From the sequence record NC_054926.1: a DNA stretch of 64,000 nt; one strand, 5' to 3'. This DNA is from Escherichia phage vB_EcoM_OE5505. This document shows, one piece after another, positions 13,737-31,936 of the stretch. Each line of letters begins with the position of its first letter. The first letter of the stretch is position 1. The position numbers were made by a program, and so were the translations under genes. Under the pieces are notes generated by a model. That model worked only from the letters and a program-made list of their open reading frames with translations, was not told the DNA's origin and did no database searches.

Positions 13737-14831
13737 ATGGCAATTGTTAAAGAAATAACTGCTGATTTAATTAAAAAGTCCGGTGAGAAAATTTCAGCCG
13801 GACAGAGTACTAAATCAGAAGTAGGAACTAAAACATACACAGCCCAGTTTCCAACTGGGCGTGCTAGTGGGAATGACACTACAGGGGACTTCCAGGTAAC
13901 AGATCTATATAAGAATGGATTATTATTTACTGCATACAATATGTCATCTAGGGATTCTGGAAGTCTCAGAACGATGAGATCTAACTACTCTTCTTCATCT
14001 TCTAGTATTTTACGTACAGCCAGAAACACTATCAGTAATACAGTATCAAAACTGTCAAATGGATTAATATCAGATAATAATTCAGGAACAATAAGTAAAG
14101 TTCCTGTTGCAAATATTCTTTTACCGAGATCTAAATCTGATGTTGATACATCATCACATAGATTTAACGATGTTCAAGATAGTCTTATTACAAAAGGTGG
14201 AGGTACTGCTACTGGCGTGTTAAGCAATATGGCTTCAACTGCAGTATTTGGAGCACTGGAAAGTATAACACAAGGTATAATGGCTGATAATAATGAACAG
14301 ATTTATACGACAGCCAGAAGTATGTATGGTGGTGCTGAGAATAGAACTAAAGTGTTCACTTGGGATTTGACTCCGCGTTCCACAGAAGATTTAATGTCTA
14401 TTATTAATATCTATCAATATTTTAACTATTTTTCTTATGGTGAAACGGGTAAATCTCAATATGCTGCTGAAATAAAAGGATATCTAGATGAGTGGTACCG
14501 TTCTACTTTTATTGAGCCGTTAACTCCAGAAGATGCAGTTAAAAATAAGACGTTATTTGAGAAAATGACATCGAGTTTAACTAACGTTCTTGTAGTTTCA
14601 AACCCGACAATTTGGATGGTGAAAAACTTTGGTGCAACATCTAAGTTTGATGGAAAAACGGAAATATTCGGTCCATGTCAAATCCAGAGTATCAGATTTG
14701 ATAAAACACCTAATGGTAACTTTAACGGATTAGCTATTGCTCCAAATCTCCCTAGTACATTTACTCTCGAGATTACTATGAGAGAAATTATCACGTTAAA
14801 CCGTGCTTCTTTATATGCGGGGACTTTTTAA
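13737..14831 (+). CDS. 48: Baseplate tail tube cap gp48
   Basis: 364-aa ORF, synteny. Confidence 0.85.
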   Translation: MAIVKEITADLIKKSGEKISAGQSTKSEVGTKTYTAQFPTGRASGNDTTGDFQVTDLYKNGLLFTAYNMSSRDSGSLRTMRSNYSSSSSSILRTARNTISNTVSKLSNGLISDNNSGTISKVPVANILLPRSKSDVDTSSHRFNDVQDSLITKGGGTATGVLSNMASTAVFGALESITQGIMADNNEQIYTTARSMYGGAENRTKVFTWDLTPRSTEDLMSIINIYQYFNYFSYGETGKSQYAAEIKGYLDEWYRSTFIEPLTPEDAVKNKTLFEKMTSSLTNVLVVSNPTIWMVKNFGATSKFDGKTEIFGPCQIQSIRFDKTPNGNFNGLAIAPNLPSTFTLEITMREIITLNRASLYAGTF

Positions 14832-15796
14832 TGTATTCTTTAGAGGAATTTAATAATCAAGCAATAAACGCAGATTTCCAACGTAATAATATGTTCAGCT
14901 GTGTTTTTGCTACAACTCCATCAACTAAAAGCTCTTCGTTGATAAGTTCAATTAGCAACTTTTCTTATAATAACTTGGGCCTAAATTCAGATTGGTTAGG
15001 ATTAACTCAAGGCGATATTAATCAGGGAATTACTACGCTAATTACAGCTGGCACACAAAAACTGATAAGAAAATCAGGGGTTAGTAAATATCTTATTGGT
15101 GCCATGAGTCAACGTACAGTTCAAAGTTTATTAGGCTCATTTACAGTTGGTACATATTTAATTGACTTCTTTAACATGGCATATAACTCATCTGGATTGA
15201 TGATATACTCTGTAAAAATGCCAGAGAATAGATTATCCTATGAAACTGACTGGAACTATAATTCTCCTAATATTCGTATAACTGGGAGAGAATTAGACCC
15301 TTTGGTTATTTCATTCAGAATGGATTCAGAAGCTTGTAACTATCGTGCAATGCAAGACTGGGTTAACGCTGTTCAAGACCCAGTAACTGGATTGCGTGCT
15401 TTGCCGCAAGATGTCGAGGCAGATATTCAGGTTAATCTTCATTCTCGCAATGGATTACCACATACTGCGGTGATGTTCACTGGATGCATTCCAGTGTCCG
15501 TAAGCGCTCCTGAGTTATCATATGATGGAGATAACCAAATAACTACATTTGATGTTACTTTTGCGTATAGAGTGATGCAGGCTGGAGCAGTTGATAGACA
15601 AGCTGCCATTGAATGGCTTGAATCTGCTACTATAAATGGTATTCAAAGCGTTCTCGGAAATAGTGGAGGTGTTACTGGACTATCTAATTCGCTTTCACGA
15701 CTTAGTAGATTAGGGGGAACTGCAGGAAGCATTTCAAATATTAACACTATGACAGGAATTGTCAATTCGCAAAGTAAAATATTAGGAGCAATATAA
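14831..15796 (+). CDS. 54: Baseplate tail tube initiator gp54
   Basis: 321-aa ORF, synteny. Confidence 0.85.
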   Translation: MYSLEEFNNQAINADFQRNNMFSCVFATTPSTKSSSLISSISNFSYNNLGLNSDWLGLTQGDINQGITTLITAGTQKLIRKSGVSKYLIGAMSQRTVQSLLGSFTVGTYLIDFFNMAYNSSGLMIYSVKMPENRLSYETDWNYNSPNIRITGRELDPLVISFRMDSEACNYRAMQDWVNAVQDPVTGLRALPQDVEADIQVNLHSRNGLPHTAVMFTGCIPVSVSAPELSYDGDNQITTFDVTFAYRVMQAGAVDRQAAIEWLESATINGIQSVLGNSGGVTGLSNSLSRLSRLGGTAGSISNINTMTGIVNSQSKILGAI

Positions 15797-15800
15797 CAAT

Positions 15801-15830
15801 GGGGACCGAAAGGTCCCCATATTTTATTTA
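15801..15830. terminator. Terminator after gene 54 (bidirectional hairpin)
   Basis: GGGGACC-GAAA-GGTCCCC followed by ATATTTTATTTA. Confidence 0.6.
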
Positions 15831-16114
15831 CGGAATGAAATAAAAGCAGCAACTGAAGCAACAGAGGTTTCTTCAATATAAACCTCAATTTTTACCGGAG
15901 CTTCTGACTCAAATTTACCTGTTACTACACCTTGGAAAATACTTTCAGTCTGTTCTGGCTTTGAAAAATTTTCAGAAGGAAAAATTCCGAACTTTTTATC
16001 TGTTCCAAAAATTTTGATAAATTCATCATAAACTGCTTCATTAAAAGCGTTATCAGCAGGAATAACGCCTTCAACTACAAGTTCTTGACCTAAAAAGCGT
16101 AAAGAAGATTTCAT
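15824..16114 (-). CDS. Hypothetical 96-aa protein between gene 54 and the alt genes
   Basis: ORF with GAGGAA ribosome-binding site and an early-type promoter upstream. Confidence 0.55.
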   Translation of the reverse strand: MKSSLRFLGQELVVEGVIPADNAFNEAVYDEFIKIFGTDKKFGIFPSENFSKPEQTESIFQGVVTGKFESEAPVKIEVYIEETSVASVAAFISFRK

Positions 16115-16145: not shown

Positions 16146-16175
16146 ACTATAACACAACACGAGGGACTTGTAAAC
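16146..16175 (-). promoter_or_regulatory. T4 early-type promoter
   Basis: GTTTAC -35, 17-bp spacer, TATAGT -10 on the - strand; about 40 bp nearly identical to the alc promoter region at 31941-31980. Confidence 0.45.
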
Positions 16176-18226
16176 TACATTTTGAACTTTTTAGACATTC
16201 CGTTGATGTTAACCAAAGAAGCTAAGATTTGAGAAACTTCGCTTTCCTCTTCTTTTGATTCTTCTACAAGGAATTGATTAAATCCAGCCATTGGACGAAC
16301 TTCACCAGTTTCCATTAGATGGTCGCCATCATATACTGATTCTTCTAATTGTTCAGAAGGAGGAACGATTGTACCTTCGATTAGATACTTGTTATAAGCA
16401 GTTTCTTTCATAAAGTAAGTACTTACTTTATTAATCTTCAGTAAAATTCCACGTGGTAGAATAATTTCAGCTTCTGACGGAAATCCTGATAAATGACCCG
16501 GAACGATAACTTTGATTCGCTCAGCTCCTTTAATTACCATACCCACGCTAGTTTCAGCATCTTCATTAGCATATGTAGAATGACTACCCATATGCATCAA
16601 ATCTTCTGCATCAACGGAACCTTCTCCTTCACCAGAAAATACTGCGCCGGAATCATCTAGAGCCATATAGTTTTTACCATGCTCACCGAAGATATTTGGT
16701 TTAAGCGATGTGGATACGAAGTTCTTGAAATAGAACATTTTATTTTCAATGTTATGACGCAAAGTTTTAAAGGTAACTTCTTGTCCACGGTAAAGTGTAG
16801 TTCCTGGAGGAAGAACTGAACCTTTAGCGAATGCAGAATCAAGCGTCTCAATATGTTTAATAGCTCGTTCCATATATTCTTCACGGGTAGAATCTGGTTT
16901 ACCCAAAAGGAACGAGTTCATTTCAACATATGAATCTGCACAATAATCTTCAATTACATCAGATTCAGCTTGAGTTAATCCTTTTGGAGTTACTTCAGTG
17001 CTTGCGTATTCATATGCCTGAGCAGCAGATTCATTAATCAATTTATAAATGCCATTCATGACAAATTGAATAATAGCTGTCTTTTCATCTGGCGTAGCTT
17101 TAGAACCTTTAACCAAATCATTGATAATTTTCTTAATAACATCAAAGCTATTAGAAATATTAATATCAGCAAGATCGCTTAAAATTTTATCAGTCTTATA
17201 ATCAAAGAATTCTTTATTCTTTAAATATTCTTGAGAACCTTGATATGTTATATCGCTCTGTAACTTGATAGATGGATCACGTAAACGTGCATGGGCTAAT
17301 GCAATATGATTTCGGAAGCTTTCGAGTTCATAATCACTAGATTTAAAACGAGAAGCGCTTCTCATACCGCCTATAGCTCCTTTGCTGAAGTTTGAACCAA
17401 TTTGAATAACGCCAGAGTTCATTGGTCCTTCTGCTTTATACACCGGAACTTTAGATTCAAACTCTTGATATTTCTTAGCAGCGAAGCTATCACCCTGAAG
17501 TGAAGCATCAACAGTAGAATATTGAGCTTGTGCTGCTAATCGACGACTAATTTTAGTTTTCTGAATAACAGCTTGGTCCGTGCGCTTATCATTTTCTAAA
17601 GCAATAGAAGCAGCAACAGCTTTAGGAACAGCATTACCTGTTTTAACATCTACATAAACATCACCAACCTTTGATTCAACTTTTGTGAATAACTCAGTTG
17701 AAATAGGAGGTACACCTGGAATGTCTTCTAAATTGGCATTTTTACGATAAACCATAATATATGCGTACTTTTTATCATAATCCCAGATTTCCTTTAAAAG
17801 AACATATCGACCTGCTCCTTTAGTACGTACTAAACGGTCAGCAATAACTTGCATTTGACGAGCTGCGCCATTTGTTTTACTCTTTAGTACACGGAATAAG
17901 CACGCGTCAATTTTATACTGCTTCATTGTTTGAAGAGCAGTATCAAAAACGGCATTAATGACACCAATTGGATTTCCACCCAAGTTTTTAAGCTTAACTA
18001 ATGATAGTTTCTCATTAACACCTATCATTACGATATGCATCATTTTATCGCCTGGCTTAACGTTTTTATTCGTATCACCACCAGAGGTGTATGTACAAAA
18101 TCTAAATCCAGGAAGCACGCTTTCTTCGCCGGCTTGAATAGCAAAAATTTGTGGTATTTTATGCTTAGGATTTAAGTTAACAACCGGCGCCGAAGCGCCG
18201 TCAAATAATTCTGTAATAAGTTCCAT
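16175..18226 (-). CDS. Alt-like ADP-ribosyltransferase, diverged paralog of alt
   Basis: 683 aa; shares the MELITELFD N-terminus and overall architecture with the adjacent alt product; R (LYRGQ), STS (FVSTSL) and ExE (EAEIILPRG) motifs retained. Confidence 0.75.
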   Translation of the reverse strand: MELITELFDGASAPVVNLNPKHKIPQIFAIQAGEESVLPGFRFCTYTSGGDTNKNVKPGDKMMHIVMIGVNEKLSLVKLKNLGGNPIGVINAVFDTALQTMKQYKIDACLFRVLKSKTNGAARQMQVIADRLVRTKGAGRYVLLKEIWDYDKKYAYIMVYRKNANLEDIPGVPPISTELFTKVESKVGDVYVDVKTGNAVPKAVAASIALENDKRTDQAVIQKTKISRRLAAQAQYSTVDASLQGDSFAAKKYQEFESKVPVYKAEGPMNSGVIQIGSNFSKGAIGGMRSASRFKSSDYELESFRNHIALAHARLRDPSIKLQSDITYQGSQEYLKNKEFFDYKTDKILSDLADINISNSFDVIKKIINDLVKGSKATPDEKTAIIQFVMNGIYKLINESAAQAYEYASTEVTPKGLTQAESDVIEDYCADSYVEMNSFLLGKPDSTREEYMERAIKHIETLDSAFAKGSVLPPGTTLYRGQEVTFKTLRHNIENKMFYFKNFVSTSLKPNIFGEHGKNYMALDDSGAVFSGEGEGSVDAEDLMHMGSHSTYANEDAETSVGMVIKGAERIKVIVPGHLSGFPSEAEIILPRGILLKINKVSTYFMKETAYNKYLIEGTIVPPSEQLEESVYDGDHLMETGEVRPMAGFNQFLVEESKEEESEVSQILASLVNINGMSKKFKM

Positions 18227-18229
18227 GAT

Positions 18230-20287
18230 TTATCCTTGAACGAACTTGTAAGGCATGTTTGCAATATCTATACAAGACGCAATAATTCCAAGAGATGATT
18301 CTACTTTCTGTTTAACATTTGATGAAACAAATGATGCAAAGTCAACTCTGTCTTCTACTTCAATATCACCTGTCATTGTAACTACTTCGCCGGTTTCCAT
18401 TAGACGGTCACCGTCATAAATTACCGATTCGGTGAGTTCTTCTGTGGTCATAACTTCAGCTTGAATAAGCTTGTTGTTAGTTTTAACTGTTCCATCATTG
18501 TAAGATGCATCGGTTATTTTATTAACTTTGACCATTAATCCACGTGGCAAAATGACTTCCATTTCATTTGAAGGTGCTAAACTTCCACCTGGTAAAACAA
18601 CATTGACTTTATCAGCCCCAGTAATAACCCATCCAATTCCAACTAAATTATCGCTAGAATTTACTAGTCCTTCATCAGTTTTATCAATAGAAACACTTAA
18701 ACGCTTTTCGTCTGGTAAAACACCCACAGATGAATCAGTCATCCAGGTACCAAAAATATTTGGATATAATGATGTTGACACAAAATTTCTAAAATAAAAA
18801 ACTCGATTTTTTACCAGTGCTTCATATATTGAAGGTAACATTCGTTGTGAACGATACAAAGTAATACCTTTTGGTAATCGTTCACCATTTTTAAAGGCTG
18901 AATCTAAATTATCAATAGCTTTTTCTATGTCAGATGCTGTCAAAATACTTGTACGCTCATCTGGATTATATAATCCCAAAAGAGCATTATTTATGTCTAC
19001 ATATCCTGAACCTACGTATTCACGAATTCCGCGTTTTTGTGCTGGTGTGTATTTAGATGAATCTTTATTTTCGACTATAGGATGTAATGACCATCCAGCG
19101 GTAAGAGCATATCCACGCAATTCTCTTCGAATAATCTTTGTTTTTATTGCATTCCAAGAATTTTGTACTAACTCATTCGCAGCATCTTGATTTAAATGCG
19201 AATGCTTGTTAATGTTTCTTTCTAACCAAGCACCTTTATATTTTTCTAAAGTATCATCAACTATAGAAGCAATAGTTTCTAAAGTTTTTATTGAAGTAAT
19301 AGATTCTTTTCGTAATCTTTCTAAAGCTTTATTTTTTATTTCTGCATTAACATCAGATTCTTTATCTTCAGGAATTATAGAAGCTTCTCTGAATGCCATT
19401 CCAGCTGTAACACTACTAAGAGCATTCTCTAATGCAAATCCTGAAGTAGAAATAACAGTTAATTCATTAGCGTCAGAAATTAAAGGAGCGTCAGCAGGTT
19501 TATTTAATTCTGCTGCTGAAGCCTCAAATTTTTGAAACATCGGCGTTTCAAATCTAGAAGATTCCAATGATTGACTTTGCGCAATTGCTCTACGGGAAAT
19601 TTTAACTTTAACGATTACAGCTTGGTCAGAACGTTTATCATTTTCTTGCGCAATAGATGCTGCAATTGCCTCATTTTTAGTTACTTGAGCTCCAGTATCT
19701 TTATTGATATAAACATCACCGACCTTCGATTCAACTTTAGTAAAGAGCTCAGTACTAATTTCCGGAACTCCCGGAATGTCTTCTAGTGATACATTTTTGC
19801 GATGTATAAGAATATATGCATACTTTTTATCGTAATCCCAGAGTTCCTTAAGAAGGACGTATCTGCCACCTGAACGACTGCGGATAAGTCTATCAGCAAT
19901 AAGTTGAATTTGACGAGCTTGACCAGCAGTTTTAGACTTAAGAATACGGAGCATGCAGGCATCAATTTTATACTGACGCATCGTTTGCATTGCAACTGTA
20001 AAAACTGAATTGATATAATTAATTGGGCTTGGACCAAGACCTTTTAATTTAGCAATTGAACCTTTAGCAGTTAATGTAAAAGGAACAATATGCATCATTT
20101 TATCGCCCATCTTTAAATCGCGATTAGTATCACCTCCAGATGTATAGGTACATAAACGAAAGCCTGGTTGTTCAATTGCATCATCAACATGAACTGAAAA
20201 AATTTGCGGTATTTTCTTCTTTGGATTTAAGTTTGTAATCGGAAGAGTAGTATCTTCGTCAAATAATTCTGTAATAAGTTCCATCAT
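18230..20287 (-). CDS. alt: Alt ADP-ribosyltransferase (packaged, injected with the DNA)
   Basis: 685-aa ORF near-identical to T4 Alt as recalled; R (LYRSQ), STS and ExE (EMEVILPRG) motifs. Confidence 0.85.
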   Translation of the reverse strand: MMELITELFDEDTTLPITNLNPKKKIPQIFSVHVDDAIEQPGFRLCTYTSGGDTNRDLKMGDKMMHIVPFTLTAKGSIAKLKGLGPSPINYINSVFTVAMQTMRQYKIDACMLRILKSKTAGQARQIQLIADRLIRSRSGGRYVLLKELWDYDKKYAYILIHRKNVSLEDIPGVPEISTELFTKVESKVGDVYINKDTGAQVTKNEAIAASIAQENDKRSDQAVIVKVKISRRAIAQSQSLESSRFETPMFQKFEASAAELNKPADAPLISDANELTVISTSGFALENALSSVTAGMAFREASIIPEDKESDVNAEIKNKALERLRKESITSIKTLETIASIVDDTLEKYKGAWLERNINKHSHLNQDAANELVQNSWNAIKTKIIRRELRGYALTAGWSLHPIVENKDSSKYTPAQKRGIREYVGSGYVDINNALLGLYNPDERTSILTASDIEKAIDNLDSAFKNGERLPKGITLYRSQRMLPSIYEALVKNRVFYFRNFVSTSLYPNIFGTWMTDSSVGVLPDEKRLSVSIDKTDEGLVNSSDNLVGIGWVITGADKVNVVLPGGSLAPSNEMEVILPRGLMVKVNKITDASYNDGTVKTNNKLIQAEVMTTEELTESVIYDGDRLMETGEVVTMTGDIEVEDRVDFASFVSSNVKQKVESSLGIIASCIDIANMPYKFVQG

Positions 20288-20307: not shown

Positions 20308-20315
20308 TATTTATA
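20308..20315 (-). promoter_or_regulatory. Late promoter for alt
   Basis: TATAAATA on the - strand about 20 bp upstream of the alt ATG. Confidence 0.5.
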
Positions 20316-20320
20316 AAATT

Positions 20321-20338
20321 AAAGGCCCGAAGGCCTTT
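20321..20338 (-). terminator. Tetraloop hairpin between the 62-aa ORF and alt
   Basis: AAAGGCC-CGAA-GGCCTTT. Confidence 0.4.
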
Positions 20339-20525
20339 AATAATCTAGTGGTAAGAGAGTACGGTATATTTCAAACTTTGGACCTTTTTCATAGGCATCA
20401 AATGTTTCTGTGAATTTATTATAAGCGTATGCATCTACAAATTCGAGAATGACTTGTGATACAGAAGTAGAAACATCTCCACCTTCTTTTTGAGCAATGA
20501 CAATTGTTTCTAAGTAAGCTTTCAT
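20337..20525 (-). CDS. Hypothetical 62-aa protein between genes 30 and alt
   Basis: ORF; start overlaps the ligase stop. Confidence 0.5.
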   Translation of the reverse strand: MKAYLETIVIAQKEGGDVSTSVSQVILEFVDAYAYNKFTETFDAYEKGPKFEIYRTLLPLDY

Positions 20526-21985
20526 AAACCAGTTACCTCATGAAAATCACCAAATACATCCTCGAATGTATTAGCTTTAGTTTTATCTTCACGCAAACGA
20601 ATCGCAATCGGAAGAAATAATTTAACGTAATCAGTGCGGCCATCAGATTTTAACCAACCGTTGCATTCGCACTCTAGAATTTTTCCAATATAATAATTTT
20701 GGTTTTCCATAATGCGAGTACGGTCAAGTTCATGCGATTTTACACCGGCTTTATCTTTTAAGCCTGAACCAGCATTTACCTTAATTTTTCCACACTCTGA
20801 TTCAAGAATAAATCCACCCGCTTTAGTAGGGTCTTTACGGTGAGGATAAATTCCTACAATTTTTAAATCAACATCAATTACTTCTTTAAATTTATAGAGA
20901 TTTTTTGAACGAGCATTTTCCCATAATCCATCGATATTTTTGAGAATAATACCTTCAAGACCTTGGTCAATATACTTTTTATAAATTACCTTAGCTTCAT
21001 CTAGGTTATTTACTACTTGGTTTTCAATTAAAATTACTTTATCATATCCTGATGTCATTTGTTCTAGTTTAGAAAAACGTACATCATATTTTAAACGAAA
21101 CGCCGGAAGACCGTATATTTCTACTAACGGGACATAATCCCAGACCTGAAACTTCATGCATTGAGCTTCTTTTTCTGAAATAGTTCCCTTTAAAGATTTA
21201 TTGGCAATTCCATTAGAAGCAGTACGAGATTCAGCTACTTCGGCGAATTCTTTAGCTTTACTAATTTCAGGATAAGCATCAAAAAGAAAATCTAGGCCTT
21301 CTGGTTCCTTTTCAACTTGCTCATGGTATACCAATTCGCCATCAATTAACACACCTTCTGGATGAATCTGGCGGGCTTCAGCGGTCATTTTGATTAACTC
21401 TTCCTTAAGAAGGTCTAATCCTAGATATTCATTACCAGCTCGTGATAAAAGACGAACATCATCTAATTCATCACCTCTAACTTCAGCAAAACACCGAGCT
21501 CCATCAGCTTTTAACTGGGCAAAGGCTGGAAATTTAATATTCTTATTAATGCCTTTTTCATCATAAGAACTTGCCAGCATTTGAGGTTGTTCAGGAATTA
21601 AACCTGGCCAAACTTTGTTTGCAATAGATACTGAAGCACCACATTCAAGGTCTCGCATCATCACTCGACGCAAAACTTCAACATCATCTTTTTTACCATC
21701 GGTGATGTATCCAGTTAATTCCTCAATTGCCGCATTTCCAGTCAATTTCCGAGTAGCTAACGTGAATTCAATGAAGTCAAGCATATCGGTAAGAGTCAAC
21801 ATTCCAAAACTCTGGGTAGCAATACCAGGTTTAGGCCATTTCTTGATATAATACTGTAACCCACGAGAATAAGTCAGACGATATACTCGTTTAAGCAATT
21901 CATTATCTTTATTCTTTTCAAGAATTGCTTGCTTCTGTTTAGTTGAACCAATAGATGCTATTTCGTTCAGAATTTTAAGAATCAT
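20522..21985 (-). CDS. 30: ATP-dependent DNA ligase gp30
   Basis: 487-aa ORF matching T4 DNA ligase (MILKILNEIASIGSTKQKQAILEKNKDNELLKRVYRLTYSRGLQYYIKKWPKP…). Confidence 0.9.
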   Translation of the reverse strand: MILKILNEIASIGSTKQKQAILEKNKDNELLKRVYRLTYSRGLQYYIKKWPKPGIATQSFGMLTLTDMLDFIEFTLATRKLTGNAAIEELTGYITDGKKDDVEVLRRVMMRDLECGASVSIANKVWPGLIPEQPQMLASSYDEKGINKNIKFPAFAQLKADGARCFAEVRGDELDDVRLLSRAGNEYLGLDLLKEELIKMTAEARQIHPEGVLIDGELVYHEQVEKEPEGLDFLFDAYPEISKAKEFAEVAESRTASNGIANKSLKGTISEKEAQCMKFQVWDYVPLVEIYGLPAFRLKYDVRFSKLEQMTSGYDKVILIENQVVNNLDEAKVIYKKYIDQGLEGIILKNIDGLWENARSKNLYKFKEVIDVDLKIVGIYPHRKDPTKAGGFILESECGKIKVNAGSGLKDKAGVKSHELDRTRIMENQNYYIGKILECECNGWLKSDGRTDYVKLFLPIAIRLREDKTKANTFEDVFGDFHEVTGL

Positions 21986-31439: not shown

Positions 31440-31936
31440 AAAGTTTTAATAACCTCTACAATATCGTCTTGAGAAAGACCGTTAATTAAAATATGATGTT
31501 CAGCTGGAGATTTAGAAATTTTAAAGCATGCCTCAACATCTTCTGCCATATCTGATGCACTACGATTTGGATTACTAATTCCAAGACGATGTTTTCCAGT
31601 CAAAGGATTAACGATGATATAGCATTTACAACTATTGATATGAACATTAGGTTGAGTCTGATTAATGAACACTTCACAATCATACTTAGCGAGTTGATTT
31701 TCTAAAAAGACTTTCATCTCCTCAACCGCATCAGGAAGCATATCACGGGCTTGCTCAAGACGACGATTTCGATATTCTTTAATGGTCGTTTTCCGCTTGA
31801 CTTGCTTAGCTAAATCTTTCTTAAGATCAGTGATATATCCAACTCGACGATTTCCTTTGAATACAGAAATCCCATCTGTAGTATCACCGTATGCTTCAAC
31901 GACCATTTCAGTAGTAATAAGCTGCAAATCCATCAT
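31430..31936 (-). CDS. alc: Alc (inhibitor of host transcription on cytosine DNA)
   Basis: 168-aa ORF at the T4 alc position between rnlA and pseT; assignment mainly by synteny. Confidence 0.7.
   Translation of the reverse strand: MMDLQLITTEMVVEAYGDTTDGISVFKGNRRVGYITDLKKDLAKQVKRKTTIKEYRNRRLEQARDMLPDAVEEMKVFLENQLAKYDCEVFINQTQPNVHINSCKCYIIVNPLTGKHRLGISNPNRSASDMAEDVEACFKISKSPAEHHILINGLSQDDIVEVIKTLCM

Follow-up and report, generated by a model that had tools for sequence, protein, structure and literature searches.

The textbook count of phage ADP-ribosyltransferases (ARTs), which is based on phage T4, is three: Alt, ModA and ModB. ModA and ModB are early genes of about 200 amino acids and lie elsewhere in the T4 genome. 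ADP-ribosylation of host RNA polymerase alpha (at Arg265) and of other host proteins is, to our knowledge, known for T4 Alt only. Each T4 head holds about 40 copies of Alt (PMC9026906). According to mass spectrometry of T4 virions, the protease gp21 cleaves Alt after ITE-6 and LTE-619, removing 6 and 63 residues (PMC5694885). ModA and ModB are T4 paralogs that are neither packaged nor injected (PMC5512222). Copies of alt have also been described: Nolan et al. 2006 counted T4 alt.-1/alt.-2 and open reading frames (ORFs) from RB49 and 44RR among the paralogous duplications of alt, one of those in 44RR being full-length (PMC1524935), and the paralogy of copies in the alt locus is already recognised in the literature. 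Here, we describe the alt locus of Escherichia phage vB_EcoM_OE5505 within a stretch of 64,000 nucleotides from record NC_054926.1 (the window, to which positions refer unless another record is named). In this locus, alt (slot 1) is followed by a second full-length gene, Alt2 (slot 2). On the sequence signatures described below, we regard it as likely that Alt2 is a second head-packaged and injected arginine ART beside Alt, probably with a different set of targets.

Two full-length Alt proteins in one locus

An earlier reading of the window, made from the letters alone (the sequence-only reading), had proposed two minus-strand ORFs of 683 and 685 amino acids, 3 bp apart. The six-frame ORF listing returns exactly these two. 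Only the 3 nucleotides ATC separate the alt stop codon TAA (18230-18232) from the ATG of Alt2 at 18226. The alt gene begins with two adjacent in-frame ATGs (20284-20287, MMELITE). The T4 annotation uses the second (20284), and the published ITE-6 cleavage numbering of T4 Alt is counted from it. The upstream product had been recognised as T4 Alt and is 99% identical to NP_049811. The downstream product had been called a diverged paralog that shares the MELITELFD start and the overall layout with Alt. This description is accurate, as Alt2 is full-length and 41% identical to Alt along its whole length by BLASTP (E 1e-160), far above chance similarity.

PF03496 (ADPrib_exo_Tox) is found in both proteins, with 121.7 bits in Alt and 71.9 bits in Alt2 against a gathering cut-off of 23.4. 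Both also match phrog_802 ("Alt-like RNA polymerase ADP-ribosyltransferase") from end to end (amino acids 1-683; E 4.5e-262 for Alt and 2.5e-253 for Alt2), and RefSeq labels both genes with the same words. PF26846 (Tevenvirinae_ADPRT) is precomputed on P0009 and on P0001, the latter being 98% identical to Alt2 and the representative of an Alt2 cluster of 772 sequences in a large protein collection. A local Pfam scan did not report PF26846 for the window proteins, and no NCBIfam family matches Alt or Alt2.

Alt2 shares with T4 Alt (gpAlt) its length, a four-module layout, the predicted N-terminal MELITE propeptide and C-terminal L-x-E/SV..YDGD.LMETGE site (the slash marks the cleavage point), the R, S-T-S and E-x-E residues, the late-gene context and the position between genes 30 and 54. 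However, its middle and ART regions have diverged strongly, and it falls into a slot-2 clade that is old and distinct from that of Alt. Alt2 is not a short stand-alone ART of about 200 amino acids without a head-targeting module. Unlike ModA and ModB, it has 683 amino acids with the full Alt architecture, including the N-terminal module and propeptides. ModA and ModB are nevertheless R-S-E ARTs paralogous to Alt2 within the Alt/VIP2 clade (PMC5512222).

Modules, selection and age of the duplication

In a three-way comparison with T4-type and T2-type Alt, Alt2 divides into an N-terminal module (amino acids 1-235), a variable helical middle (236-410), the R-S-E ART domain (411-620) and a C-terminal tail (621-683). 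In the N-terminal module of about 235 amino acids, Alt and Alt2 have 68% identity, and the two Alt alleles have 99-100%. The helical middles of Alt and Alt2 are nearly unrelated (13% identity), and those of the T4-type and T2-type Alt alleles are 15-54% identical (33% in the three-way comparison). The ART domain contains a variable insert; its identity is 33% for Alt versus Alt2 and 64% for the two Alt alleles. The ADP-ribosylating turn-turn (ARTT) loops differ as well, reading LAPSNEME in T4-type Alt, LGIATEAE in T2-type Alt and GFPSEAE in Alt2. The C-terminal tails of Alt and Alt2 are 44% identical, with the conserved core SV(I)YDGDxLMETGEV.

Selection was measured on orthologs taken from GenBank phage records, since a scan of IMG/VR gave only 5 loci. 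Over 12 Alt2 orthologs, the ratio of nonsynonymous to synonymous divergence (dN/dS) is 0.045, with a mean dS of about 0.2. By module, dN/dS is 0.015 in the N-terminal module, 0.076 in the middle, 0.046 in the ART domain and 0.028 in the C-terminal tail (proportion of synonymous differences, pS, about 0.17). Purifying selection is strong in all four modules of Alt2. A decaying duplicate or pseudogene is ruled out by this overall dN/dS together with an intact ORF in about 400 genomes.

The pair is also found beyond close relatives. A divergent metagenomic contig has the same order of ligase, Alt, Alt2, DUF5498 and gp54 with the same 3-bp gap, and its Alt2 is 74% identical. Dhakavirus phage dhaeg has a full-length Alt pair too, and Mosigvirus EP32a has a single copy. 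In neighbour-joining trees of the ART domain, the slot-2 proteins of Tequatrovirus and Dhakavirus form one clade (99-100% bootstrap), and the slot-1 proteins form another with the single Mosigvirus copy (96-100% support). Thus, the duplication predates the split of Tequatrovirus and Dhakavirus. A recent lineage-specific duplication is ruled out, as the Dhakavirus slot-2 protein joins Alt2 in these trees. The N-terminal module groups instead by phage lineage, and dhaeg slot 1, dhaeg slot 2 and the Mosigvirus copy fall together (97% bootstrap). This grouping suggests that the head-targeting module is homogenised by gene conversion or that it co-evolves with the head (prohead core) of each phage.

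The age of the duplication, with a slot-2 ART clade of its own, bears on whether Alt2 is a redundant backup of Alt that shares its targets (among them Arg265 of RNA polymerase alpha) and is kept for dosage or robustness. We consider this unlikely, although the two proteins share their family, catalytic type (E-x-E, arginine-specific) and expression context, and T4 thrives without Alt2. The low identity to Alt in the middle and ART regions, combined with tight conservation among Alt2 orthologs, is the pattern typical of subfunctionalised paralogs.

Slot 1 itself is dimorphic in Tequatrovirus. The T4-type allele of 683-685 amino acids is found in the window, T4, fFiEco06 and Paracelsus, and the T2-type allele of 698 amino acids in T2 (locus L008, 504-2597), RB51, wV7, Sf24, Nami, WL-3 and BMB16. 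The alleles differ by a dN of about 0.21 and a dS of about 0.5. Their N-terminal 250 amino acids and C-terminal tails are near-identical, and the divergence is concentrated in the middle and ART regions. Intact Alt2 co-occurs with either allele. A different slot 2 is seen in Krischvirus MIZ3, where a full-length Alt is accompanied by a short stand-alone ART of 274 amino acids without the N-terminal module (phrog_15144-like; locus L018, 5053-5877).

Packaging and processing signals

The two proteins of the window have the same N-terminal prohead-protease site, MELITE/LF, which is identical to ITE-6 of T4 Alt. Alt of the window has both gp21 sites of T4 Alt (ITE/L and LTE/S). In Alt2, the C-terminal sequence LEE/SV aligns with LTE-619/SV of T4 Alt and continues into the conserved VYDGDHLMETGEV. 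The form (L/I)-x-E is kept at both gp21 positions in 11/11 family members compared, which come from four genera. These motifs and the strongly constrained N-terminal module are the main argument that Alt2 would be packaged and processed like Alt. A literature search covering Alt2, second alt genes and virion proteomics of the second protein found no functional study of Alt2, and a report on Yersinia T4-like phages (PMC7917993) contains no Alt proteomics.

It is distinctly unlikely that Alt2, as an active late-made ART, stays out of the head and works in the producing cell, for example on host or phage proteins during assembly or lysis. Such a protein would have kept the whole N-terminal Alt module, which is the most constrained part of Alt2, and this module and both gp21 motifs would serve no obvious role in it. 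The non-injected paralogs ModA and ModB are early proteins of about 200 amino acids. Their existence does provide a precedent for non-packaged ARTs in T4 (PMC5512222).

The ART domain

Intact catalytic motifs had been claimed for both genes, and all of them are present: LYRSQ in Alt and LYRGQ in Alt2, FVSTSL in both, and EMEVILPRG in Alt and EAEIILPRG in Alt2. The sequence-only reading had named loss of the catalytic Glu residues as an argument against activity. No such loss is seen; R, S-T-S and E-x-E are kept and are invariant in a family alignment of 16 homologs with 42-95% identity (alignment A3). In a family alignment of 11 sequences, S505/S507 is kept in 10. In the exception, the slot-2 protein of Dhakavirus dhaeg (locus L017, 4001-6124), S-A-S replaces the canonical S-T-S, and the Arg and E-x-E are retained. 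Arginine specificity, known for T4 Alt, is predicted for Alt2 too, because its ARTT motif has the E-x-E and not the Q-x-E form.

A search of the PDB with the full-length Alt2 sequence returned nothing at E<=0.01. The isolated ART domain gives weak matches to VIP2, Lmo0066 and Vis. In the phmmer alignments, LYRG corresponds to VYRW of VIP2, and SEAEIIL corresponds to SEKEILL of VIP2 and EEAEVLF of Lmo0066. An AlphaFold2 model of Alt2 was built from the 16-sequence alignment and used solely to confirm the ART fold. Its confidence is low, with a mean predicted local distance difference test score (pLDDT) of 58.9 and values of 70-87 in parts of the ART core only. With this low-confidence model, the top 50 Foldseek matches are all R-S-E ART toxins. 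Their E values run from 4e-8 to 3e-5 and their target template modelling (TM) scores are about 0.6. Among them are Certhrax, C3bot, VIP2, CDTa and Vis, the last with entry 4xzk (E 4e-8, target TM 0.64).

The C3, VIP2, iota-Ia and Vis toxins (PF03496) share with Alt and Alt2 the catalytic fold and the R, S-T-S and E-x-E motifs. However, these toxins are secreted by bacteria and either have a B-component-binding domain or lack one. Alt and Alt2 instead have an N-terminal module for targeting to the phage head, together with propeptides that gp21 removes from Alt and is predicted to remove from Alt2. That Alt2 is a catalytically dead structural or internal head protein, or a decoy, is highly improbable: its lower PF03496 score reflects a more diverged ART domain and nothing specific, and against it stand the invariance of R480, S505, S507, E585 and E587, the ART-domain dN/dS and a fold search that returns active R-S-E toxins.

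The T4 remnant and the distribution of Alt2

The sequence-only reading could not say whether T4 carries the same pair. The identical arrangement is not found there, as T4 holds only a frameshifted and deleted remnant of Alt2, but the pair is ordinary conserved content of the genus. In the T4 reference NC_000866, alt is followed by alt.-1 (186 bp, NP_049810) and alt.-2 (204 bp, NP_049809), which the record describes as "an old duplication of the first part of gene alt". The alt.-1/alt.-2 segment corresponds to the 5' end of the window Alt2 (322/337 nucleotides identical) with collinear flanks, and the 3' flank including alt.-3 is identical at 397/414 nucleotides. Loss of one base pair in an A-run has shifted the frame and split the T4 remnant into alt.-1 and alt.-2, and a segment of Alt2 between short CTAAA repeats (microhomology) has been deleted. 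The PHROG families of alt.-1 and alt.-2 score 138 and 131 bits on Alt2 versus 78 and 70 bits on Alt. The collinear alignment and these scores rule out a partial duplication of alt, as given in the T4 record, and point instead to deletion of a full-length paralog. T4 alt.-1/alt.-2 is the wreck of a full-length Alt2 gene.

In 91 phage records, among them the independent isolates slur14, TB004, Lv5cm, fPS-2 and FL44, the sequence runs uninterrupted across the T4-type deletion junction. The deletion is a natural minority allele. Since T4 and its closest kin have lost Alt2 in this way, the gene appears to be dispensable on some hosts.

With the whole locus as a megablast query, 527 phage records were found, 376 of which cover at least 80% of it. 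A tblastn search with Alt2 found about 400 phage records in which the whole protein is matched with at least 90% identity. Among about 500 Tequatrovirus-like records, about 80% have intact Alt2 and about 18% the deletion allele. Intact Alt2 is present in T2, RB51, wV7, Sf24, SHFML-11, PYPS2T, AR1, PP01 and several BASEL phages. The closest ortholog is that of Yersinia phage PYps55T (99.6%).

The second gene already has several names. It is called alt.-2 in RB51 and "ADP-ribosyltransferase Alt2" in the BASEL record of Paracelsus (Bas36). The Sf24 record describes it as "distinct from Sf24gp48 and T4 Alt", and the fFiEco06 record notes that its N-terminus is similar to T4 Alt.-1 and Alt.-2. The annotated second genes of T2, RB51, wV7, Sf24, Paracelsus, fFiEco06 and others are 96.9-99.6% identical to the window Alt2 at the amino acid level and have the same 3-bp spacing and synteny. 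Most members of the genus have both Alt and Alt2. With hundreds of deposited and annotated copies, the pair is not new as a sequence feature. Unlike 11/11 other orthologs, the window Alt2 is two residues shorter near amino acid 203. One Ala-Val unit of PKAVAVAAS is missing between K202 and A203 (about position 17620), where a short repeat in a low-confidence linker has slipped without a change of frame.

Expression of alt and Alt2

The late promoter box TATAAATA upstream of alt, in the context TTTTATAAATAGAATAAACACTAGAGAGGCTATGATG, is the only minus-strand copy in the alt region, and its presumed role follows from the established T4 late-promoter consensus. The promoter scan of this region found no TATAAATA box between alt and Alt2, which leaves Alt2 without a late box of its own. 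The Shine-Dalgarno sequence of Alt2 lies within the last codons of alt (junction sequence TTCAAGGATAAATCATG), and translation of Alt2 may be coupled to that of alt. The sole strong terminator downstream of the alt genes is located after alt.-3. The simplest reading of this arrangement would be one late bicistronic message for alt and Alt2. Further upstream, alt.1 and alt are separated by a short GC hairpin and a T-rich tract, which may act as a terminator and keep early transcription from running into alt; a terminator consensus scan did not flag this hairpin (20324-20335), the stem of which is short.

An early-type promoter-like site between Alt2 and alt.-3 matches the consensus and is conserved in T4. 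By this site, alt.-3 (DUF5498) may be expressed early and independently of the late alt genes.

Proposed role of Alt2

In the proposed pathway, alt and Alt2 would be transcribed together from TATAAATA, and Alt2 would be translated by coupling through the AAGGA inside the end of alt. Both proteins would enter the prohead core by their shared N-terminal module, and gp21 would trim each after the N-terminal I-T-E and after the C-terminal L-x-E. Both would then be ejected with the DNA into the next host, where each would transfer ADP-ribose from nicotinamide adenine dinucleotide (NAD+) onto arginine residues, as expected for the E-x-E type. Because the middle and the ART surface with its ARTT loop differ so strongly from those of Alt, the two enzymes probably differ in the host proteins that they modify. 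The sequence-only reading had raised the possibility of two delivered ARTs with different targets, and the sequence evidence is compatible with it.

Several points weigh against this proposal. Alt2 is not essential, since the records with the deletion allele, T4 among them, lack it. A difference in sequence need not imply a difference in targets, and T4 Alt itself modifies many proteins. The structural support from the Alt2 model is confined to the ART core.

A broader reading, which we offer tentatively, is that the alt locus is a two-slot cassette of injected effectors, in which a constant head-targeting module and cleavable tails are combined with exchangeable "warheads" made of the middle and ART regions. 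Tequatrovirus has at least three such warheads, namely those of T4-type Alt, T2-type Alt and Alt2. The target of Alt2 would then be distinct from that of Alt and might be a defence or toxin protein, and loss or exchange of a slot might change the host range.

With respect to Alt2, T4 is the exception, as about four-fifths of the sequenced Tequatrovirus-like genomes encode this fourth ART. If Alt2 is indeed injected, it would act within the first seconds of infection, on targets outside the reach of work on the model phage T4, which lacks the gene. Alt2 is a reasonable subject for experiments: its sequence is constrained and bears the marks of a processed head protein, its active site looks live, and the half that would recognise substrates has diverged.

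Features of the locus and neighbouring genes

From the genes around alt and Alt2, the region can be recognised as the segment of a T4-like genome with genes 29-48-54, alt and gene 30. Alt2 lies between gene 30/alt.1 and alt.-3/gene 54 behind a late promoter, which matches the location of the T-even Alt family. The features are listed in Table 1.

Table 1. Genes, motifs and signals of the alt locus, in window positions
Feature	Position	Strand	Description
alt (slot 1, T4-type allele)	18230..20287	-	685 amino acids from first ATG, starts MMELITELFDE; ORF listing
Alt2 (slot 2)	16175..18226	-	683 amino acids, starts MELITELFDG; ORF listing
Alt2 codons 1-6 (MELITE)	18209..18226	-	predicted N-terminal propeptide ending in gp21 motif I-T-E; identity to T4 Alt ITE-6
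Alt2 Arg480 (LYRGQ)	16787..16789	-	catalytic; invariant in A3; aligned to VIP2 VYRW
Alt2 S505-T506-S507 (FVSTSL)	16706..16714	-	S505 and S507 invariant in A3
Alt2 E585-A-E587 (ARTT E-x-E)	16466..16474	-	GFPS just before; invariant in A3
Alt2 L627-E628-E629	16340..16348	-	predicted C-terminal gp21 motif (L-x-E/S)
T4-type late promoter box TATAAATA	20308..20315	-	about 20 nucleotides upstream of alt start codons
Candidate terminator between alt.1 and alt	20316..20335	-	GC hairpin GGCC-TTCG-GGCC (20324-20335) and T-rich tract; read from sequence
Shine-Dalgarno AAGGA for Alt2	18233..18237	-	within last alt codons
Early-type promoter-like site	16146..16174	-	TTTACA-17-TATAGT (with TG); consensus match only; directly after Alt2 stop, before alt.-3
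Bidirectional terminator hairpin	15799..15820	both	between converging alt.-3 and gene 54; 9-bp stem, 6 GC pairs
1-bp loss in A-run in T4	18067	-	frameshift in T4 remnant
Alt2 segment deleted in T4	16195..17887	-	1,693 bp, bounded by CTAAA repeats
alt.-3 (DUF5498)	15824..16114	-	conserved downstream neighbour; PF17602, E 3e-62
alt.1 (Pfam Phage_blade)	20337..20525	-	upstream neighbour; PF24647; overlaps gene 30 end
DNA ligase gp30 (gene 30)	20522..21985	-	
gp48	13737..14831	+	
gp54	14831..15796	+	

The neighbour alt.1, long a conserved hypothetical, now matches the curated Pfam family "Phage blade protein" (PF24647, E 1.9e-29). A match to the other neighbour is found in MG010123.1, a 32-kb record named "Staphylococcus phage SAJK-IND", in which 164 bp (31733-31896) are 96% identical to the T4 alt.-3 region and are annotated as "prohead core scaffold protein". 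This record is probably contaminated or mislabelled.

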